Below, in pieces: positions 33,251 to 33,807 of a stretch of 64,000 nt of DNA. A program made the translations under genes and the position numbers. The notes under the pieces were generated by a model that was not told the DNA's origin, did no database searches, and saw only the letters and a list, made by a program, of their open reading frames with translations. The first letter of the stretch is position 1. Every line of letters begins with the position of its first letter. Location: the NCBI RefSeq assembly GCF_056712565.1, contig NZ_CM160072.1; one strand, 5' to 3'.

Positions 33251-33549
33251 TATAATGAATACCTTCTACATGTTTAGAGTGCATAATCCACGACAAGGCG
33301 ATATCCTAAAAATTAGCTAGCAGGCAACTTTGATGGCATAGATAATGTTTTTAGTAAAAAAGAGTTGACTGAATATAATACAGCCTCTTCCTACATAAGA
33401 AGGAATGTGCTCACAAAAAAAACCATTAGTCTGCTTCCTGTTCTTACAATAATCAGTATTATGTATTTTATTTATATAGCAAAATATGCTTGTTACACCT
33501 GTCATAATTAGGCATGGTAAAATTATTGACTGAACCCTGGGGGAGAAAG

Positions 33550-33807
33550 ATGCACAGTGATTATTATAATATGGTTTTTGGTGAAAAATTGGCCAATATT
33601 TTATATGAAGCTAACTCTCAATTTTTTTACGAGAGAAATGTCATAGAAGAGGCAGTCAACGCTTTATTCTGTGAGCGTGAAATAATAAACAACAAGAACA
33701 TAATAAAGAAGCTGATGTTCTTTTTGTCAGATGTTAATCACACCAAGAAAGATGTTGTTCAGAGCGCACTTAATATTATCATTGACATTACATCAGGTGA
33801 TATTTGA
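33550..33807 (+). CDS. Small hypothetical protein in AT-rich DNA (85 aa from MHSDYYNMVF)
   Basis: ORF 33514..33807; no recognisable domain; low GC, flanked by IS remnants. Confidence 0.3.
   Translation: MHSDYYNMVFGEKLANILYEANSQFFYERNVIEEAVNALFCEREIINNKNIIKKLMFFLSDVNHTKKDVVQSALNIIIDITSGDI

Follow-up and report, generated by a model that had tools for sequence, protein, structure and literature searches.

A small open reading frame among insertion sequence remnants as a probable mobile member of the YmgB/AriR family

Does a short open reading frame (ORF) that lies in AT-rich DNA between the remains of insertion sequences (IS) encode a protein and, if so, of what kind? The question is raised by a locus in a stretch of 64,000 nucleotides (nt) from the NCBI RefSeq assembly GCF_056712565.1 (contig NZ_CM160072.1), hereafter referred to as the window. 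Here a plus-strand frame runs from an ATG at 33514 to a TGA at 33805-33807 (97 residues), with an internal ATG at 33550 that would give a product of 85 residues. A first-pass annotation, made from the letters of the window without database searches, had listed this frame and its shorter form at 33514-33807, and our analysis confirmed both the coordinates and the strand. The same annotation had considered the frame an orphan without recognisable domain, which could represent either a horizontally acquired small gene or non-coding DNA. Our comparative analysis indicates that the ORF is very probably a real protein-coding gene of the YmgB/AriR family, and an ordinary, already catalogued member of this known family.

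Family assignment and evolution as a protein

Comparison of the ORF product with the Pfam collection revealed a match to PF10798 (Biofilm development protein YmgB/AriR) with 26.7 bits for the 97-residue form and 27.3 bits for the 85-residue form, which lies above the curated gathering cut-off of 22.3 bits and covers profile positions 2-59 of 59. Furthermore, the product matched the crystallised YmgB chain (PDB 2OXL) both by sequence (expectation value, E, 0.0016) and by its helical-bundle fold, so that the domain missed in the first-pass annotation is in fact recognisable. Pairwise comparison with AriR of Escherichia coli K-12 gave 30% identity over 83 residues (E 3e-8), and an end-to-end alignment with 30 family members (31 sequences in total, 90 columns) was obtained with small gaps only, in keeping with a family of single-domain proteins of about 80-90 residues. 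All hydrophobic-core positions of the family are retained in this alignment, as are the nine family-invariant residues L14, E28, A35, N48, K49, I51, D68, L74 and T81 (in the ORF product's own numbering), and the NNKNII motif is found among the conserved positions kept. Nor is the protein an orphan: RefSeq holds the identical 97-residue sequence as WP_000239862.1 under the name "biofilm development regulator YmgB/AriR family protein", and in the protein collection the exact 97-residue and 85-residue sequences are each recorded from some 1000 contigs or more. Searches against PHROGs and PADLOC returned sub-threshold noise only and no phage or defence family, and a literature search for WP_000239862 found no paper.

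An exhaustive HMMER scan of 1.84 billion representative proteins (E up to 0.001) recovered two non-self clades, P0064 (46% identity) and P0068 (36% identity); with only these two other clades, the subfamily is narrow. The closest distinct clade, P0064 (86 residues, same start position), is also plasmid-borne and occurs on virulence-type E. coli plasmids such as CP076275.1, which carries in addition an allele of the present gene with 87% protein identity. Its neighbours, genes with polysaccharide-deacetylase, DUF535, PmrD and glycosyltransferase domains, differ from those of the present gene. P0068 is chromosomal and resembles the AriR locus in its surroundings, with EAL- and MerR-domain genes on one side of it and a PmrD-domain gene and then icd on the other. 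AriR/YmgB of E. coli K-12 itself (b1166; 2OXL; PF10798) is not an ortholog of the present gene: ariR belongs to the ycgZ-ymgA-ariR-ymgC operon beside bluR/bluF, whereas the present gene stands alone between IS1, IS3 and IS5 remnants.

It is this homology, and not the length of the frame, that leads us to regard the ORF as a gene. When 33212-33931 was shuffled 2000 times with dinucleotides preserved, 4% of the shuffles contained a stop-free run of at least 99 codons (p ~0.04), and the length by itself is thus weak evidence for a gene, marginally above chance. The AT-rich setting described earlier was borne out, with a GC fraction of 0.31-0.33 in 300-nt windows over 33250-33849 versus 0.50-0.62 in the neighbouring genes (fec to the left, a phytase-like gene to the right).

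The gene belongs to an AT-rich module composed of about 250 nt upstream, the gene and 65 nt downstream (33299-33872, plus strand), which is the unit common to the window and a divergent plasmid allele. As judged by blastn, this module shares 87.8% identity over 574 nt with loci L002, L003, L004 and L006, and homology stops at both edges. The divergent allele, carried by plasmids of incompatibility group F (IncF) type and represented by the proteins P0031 and P0032, shows 87% protein identity and about 12% DNA divergence, and its 85-codon frame is open. No indel separates the two alleles within the 258-nt ORF, all 31 gap columns being located in the 316 nt of flanks, and the divergence of the ORF (5.8%) is lower than that of its two flanks (8.2% and 9.2%). 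The lower divergence together with the indel-free ORF lends mild support to constraint. At greater depth, the proportion of synonymous differences reached 0.86 against P0064 and 0.76 against P0068, both saturated, while the proportion of non-synonymous differences was 0.35 and 0.38, respectively. Such saturation of synonymous sites with lower non-synonymous change indicates that the lineage has evolved as a protein. Given the homology and a frame that is open in the diverged allele and in relatives of 46% and 36% identity, the non-coding alternative raised by the first-pass annotation is very unlikely. That annotation had named a frame not conserved as open in homologous DNA as evidence against a gene, and in all three the frame is open.

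Start codon and upstream signals

The 97-residue RefSeq form includes a 12-codon N-terminal extension (33514-33549, plus strand) that is probably not translated. The IncF-plasmid allele lacks 1 bp between the two ATGs, where GGGGGAGAAAG has become GGGGGAAAAG; ATG 33514 is thereby out of frame, and only the 85-codon frame is conserved. In each of the relatives P0031, P0032 and P0064 the start coincides with the methionine encoded at 33550. A Shine-Dalgarno-like GGGGGAG read at 33539-33545 (plus strand), 4 nt upstream of ATG 33550, has its G-run conserved in the plasmid allele and may act as the ribosome-binding site; no Shine-Dalgarno-like sequence could be read ahead of ATG 33514. In view of the indel, the aligned methionines of the relatives and the upstream GGGGGAG, the true start is probably ATG 33550, which would give a coding sequence for an 85-residue YmgB/AriR-family protein at 33550-33807 (plus strand, stop codon included), and the RefSeq start is probably placed 12 codons too far upstream.

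Further upstream, a perfect TATAAT at 33374-33379 (plus strand), invariant between the alleles (alignment A1), represents a weak candidate -10 element. A poly-A tract at 33415-33422, in the presumed 5' leader of the gene, counts 8 A both in the window and in L001, the chromosomal RefSeq example from strain 7/2 (100% identical), and 9 A in the plasmid copies L007, L017 and L018. A further upstream ORF of 48 residues with a TTG start and a hydrophobic stretch (33365-33511, plus strand) was rejected and is probably no gene, because this difference between A8 and A9 in the plasmid copies and a 28-nt deletion in the divergent allele break its frame.

Insertion sequence surroundings and distribution

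The module is embedded in IS sequences on both sides. On the left, an IS1 with InsA and InsB ORFs (32037-32804, plus strand) lies between fecI and the module and is 98.9% identical to the IS1 on plasmid L007; the corresponding position carries the RefSeq annotation 'IS1 family transposase'. The IS1 is followed by an IS3-like remnant with an internal deletion (32871-33211, plus strand; pseudogene fragments in RefSeq), consisting of a terminal repeat (32871-32912), a degenerate orfA start and a transposase C-terminal fragment (33113-33211), the translation of which matches Pfam rve_2 (E 3.9e-7) and which RefSeq names 'IS3 family transposase, incomplete'. On the right, a fragment of an IS5/IS1182-family transposase (33932-34062, minus strand) was located by mapping the RefSeq annotation of L001; a full-length IS5-family transposase occupies the right-hand side of the gene on the Salmonella plasmid L018. 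The right-end fragment of an inverted IS3-family element (34064-34281, minus strand) comes next, identified by a 42-nt terminal repeat (34064-34105), which is 93% identical to the repeat at 32871-32912, and by a RefSeq 'IS3 family transposase, incomplete' at 34145-34276. The flanks given in the first-pass annotation, an internally deleted IS3-like element and a second IS3-family remnant, are thereby confirmed, with the IS1 and the IS5/IS1182 fragment as additions. The complete block of 1.4 kb (32875-34281), which extends from the IS3 remnant through the AT-rich module and the IS5 fragment to the inverted IS3 end, is 99% identical to positions 6577-7985 of pG3X16-2-3 (L017), an IncFIA/FIB/X1 plasmid from a pig isolate, and hence the IS scars are old and move together with the gene. 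The degenerate IS fragments thus accompany the gene when it passes between plasmids and the fec island of the chromosome.

A region of 801 nt surrounding the gene was found in 1778 of the 5426 complete E. coli genomes, at 1750 chromosomal and 100 plasmid places, nearly all with at least 99% identity. Chromosomal copies adjoin fecIRABCDE-IS1, as in the window and in L001. In BL21 (L019) an identical protein is encoded between two IS1 copies, followed by sgcR, whereas the corresponding interval of K-12 MG1655 (L020, 4518472-4520324) contains neither gene nor module and IS1F abuts yjhU; the two arrangements suggest that IS1 mediated different deletions in different lineages. Among the plasmids in PLSDB, 49 carry the module (41 from Escherichia, 7 from Salmonella and 1 from Shigella). 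The plasmids examined are of the IncF type and the neighbours of the gene are varied: it is situated between IS1 and IS1A next to evgSA, near repE and the yacAB toxin-antitoxin genes, between IS1 and an intact IS5-family element, or between Tn3 and IS1 fragments near an IncFII repA. With the module on IncF plasmids of three genera and on one third of complete E. coli chromosomes, and absent from K-12, the option of a horizontally acquired small gene is supported.

On the IncFIB plasmid pMRSN346647_113.1 (L007, 1207-5419) the gene is separated by one IS1 from plasmid-borne evgS and evgA, which encode an acid-resistance two-component system. Given the link of AriR to acid resistance this proximity is suggestive, and it may be a coincidence. 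A copy of the block on the Salmonella plasmid pNEW1 (L008, CP073337.1, 4549-5959; 86% identity), in which the ORF is broken by many small indels, was not counted as a pseudogene. It was set aside because the record carries few annotations (31 features in 70 kb, the six in the examined stretch all 'hypothetical protein') and resembles an assembly with many errors; uncorrected long reads are probably the cause, not real divergence of a pseudogene. Many short 'partial' versions of 60-71 residues (P0163-P0176) come from draft assemblies of Shigella sonnei, S. flexneri and E. coli and could be either IS-truncated copies or contig-end artefacts.

Beyond the immediate surroundings of the gene, the window contains an IS66-family transposase ORF of 347 residues with a TTG start (36155-37198, minus strand). 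An intact tnpC of 461 residues (1386 nt) occupies the same place in strain 7/2, the tnpA and tnpB annotated there are not among the listed ORFs of the window, and the IS66 copy of the window appears truncated. Typical cargo of CP4/KpLE2-type islands follows downstream (38688-49089), including genes for a DUF3987 protein (38688-40241), a YeeP-like GTPase (41363-42274), an Ag43-like AIDA autotransporter of 1064 residues (42571-45765), a DUF932 protein (46149-46967) and a CbeA-type antitoxin (48613-49089).

Proposed function and competing explanations

AriR/YmgB of E. coli K-12 is a small cytoplasmic "connector" that forms dimers and a complex with YcgZ and YmgA, and its family serves in biofilm and acid-stress signalling. 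YmgB has been reported to interact with RcsC's histidine-kinase domain and to act through RcsB (PMC6900184), and the induction of Rcs by YmgB does not need RcsF (PMC11451591). It also binds SpoT, upon which guanosine tetraphosphate (ppGpp) accumulates, and the substitution R74G abolishes SpoT binding while Rcs-dependent mucoidy is kept (PMC10704370). By analogy, the ORF product would have neither enzymatic nor DNA-sequence-specific activity and would bind a signalling protein, the best candidate being the cytoplasmic histidine-kinase part of RcsC. Such binding would switch the Rcs phosphorelay on, which in turn would be expected to increase colanic acid, to lower CsgD and curli and to alter acid resistance; the protein might thus serve as a stand-alone AriR-type connector on Rcs, or address another partner via the same helical surface. 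We favour, with moderate confidence, a mobile, all-helical cytoplasmic YmgB/AriR protein of 85 residues that probably binds a signalling protein, RcsC in the first place. The narrower proposal that it works as an Rcs connector in vivo is held more tentatively, at somewhat below an even chance; the expression, binding partner and phenotype of the gene are inferred.

A particular feature of the clade concerns the conserved surface arginine of AriR that is essential for SpoT binding. R74 of AriR aligns with a glutamine (DVVQS) in the ORF product and in P0031 and P0032, whereas the other 28 of the 31 sequences carry arginine; P0064 retains it as DIIRS. Hence, little or no SpoT-dependent accumulation of ppGpp would be expected from this clade.

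Several observations weigh against the proposed function. On the surface of the last helix the product differs from AriR by R74Q, K75S, E78N and R82D in the alignment, and its binding partner may therefore differ as well; the partner genes ycgZ and ymgA are not encoded beside it, and an NCBIfam search gave no match to an AriR equivalog, only sub-threshold noise. The gene is surrounded by AT-rich DNA and defunct IS elements. A consensus scan of 33100-34000 found no sigma-70 promoter upstream of the gene and no intrinsic terminator around it; the three weak promoter-like sites of the scan are either internal to the ORF or on the opposite strand and are no more numerous than in shuffles. The two close alleles differ by 15 substitutions in the ORF (3.5 synonymous and 11.5 non-synonymous), and the resulting ratio of non-synonymous to synonymous substitution rates (dN/dS) of 0.75 is not distinguishable from neutrality. 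Moreover, about two thirds of the complete E. coli genomes lack the gene, and some copies are truncated or frameshifted (P0036, P0052 and the cluster of short 'partial' proteins, many of them from S. sonnei).

These observations largely feed the main alternative, according to which the ORF is a genuine YmgB-family gene that has become a silent or decaying passenger, intact only through recent spread of the module, poorly expressed (e.g., owing to silencing by H-NS in its AT-rich setting) and of no consequence for the host. The IS graveyard around the gene with no recognised promoter or terminator, the dN/dS between the two alleles, the loss of the conserved arginine, the absence from K-12 and most other E. 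coli genomes and the frameshifted or truncated variants would all fit such a passenger. Nearly all copies are at least 99% identical, so that their intactness says little about selection. Nevertheless, the frame is intact in both alleles in spite of about 12% divergence, with every indel falling into the flanks; the hydrophobic-core and invariant positions of the family are all kept; and the module has been maintained through several different IS-mediated rearrangements on different replicons. We therefore regard the passenger as a serious but rather unlikely explanation and prefer the mobile signalling-protein binder.

In a further-reaching reading, the gene might encode a mobile AriR 'decoupled' from SpoT by the missing arginine, which would either activate Rcs without the stringent response or form heterodimers that blunt the AriR/YmgA/YcgZ complex of the host. 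This scenario appears improbable at present. If true, IncF plasmids and the fec island could retune capsule, curli and biofilm formation of their hosts, an effect comparable to the modulation of host regulation by plasmid-borne Hha or H-NS paralogs. Hha/YmoA proteins, co-regulators of H-NS, resemble the present protein in being small and helical and often encoded on plasmids and acquired DNA. YmgB is said to have been described as structurally Hha-like by Lee et al. in 2007. The ORF product matched Hha/YmoA neither by sequence nor by fold.

Far less probable is a secreted, effector-like protein in place of a cytoplasmic connector. The model here is Orf131a (SPA-ORF10) of the Shigella invasion plasmid pINV, encoded downstream of spaS, whose secretion is reported to depend on the type III secretion apparatus and which is reported to be a type III substrate translocated into host cells (PMC5658099). 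Its gene, an intact 80-residue YmgB-family ORF, was found on pCP301 downstream of spa40 (L021, 40438-40680); the sequence was taken directly from pCP301, where it is absent from the PLSDB gene table, and was not reached by tblastn of either the ORF product or AriR against plasmids. Orf131a is, like the ORF product, a small YmgB-family protein encoded in similarly AT-rich, mobile DNA, and the two share 27% identity (E 2e-6). However, the ORF product is no closer to Orf131a than to the cytoplasmic AriR (30%), BL21 is among the carriers, and whereas orf131a stands at the end of a type III secretion operon, neither the window nor the plasmids examined have type III secretion genes adjoining the present gene.

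A frame left open by chance in non-coding, AT-rich sequence, or a functional RNA element, could draw on the marginally unusual length of the ORF but is effectively refuted by the sequence, profile and fold homology to a characterised protein family, by the strong predominance of synonymous differences in the comparison with distant relatives and by an Rfam scan of 32000-35000 that gave no match at E up to 1.

The wider importance of the assignment is small and no new mechanism is implied, the correction of the RefSeq start being a useful by-product. With the natural R74Q difference, a means is at hand to test if Rcs and SpoT activities can be separated in the YmgB/AriR family. Since the gene is absent from K-12 and present in BL21 and about one third of the complete E. 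coli genomes, studies of AriR, Rcs and biofilms in strains other than K-12 should allow for a second paralog.
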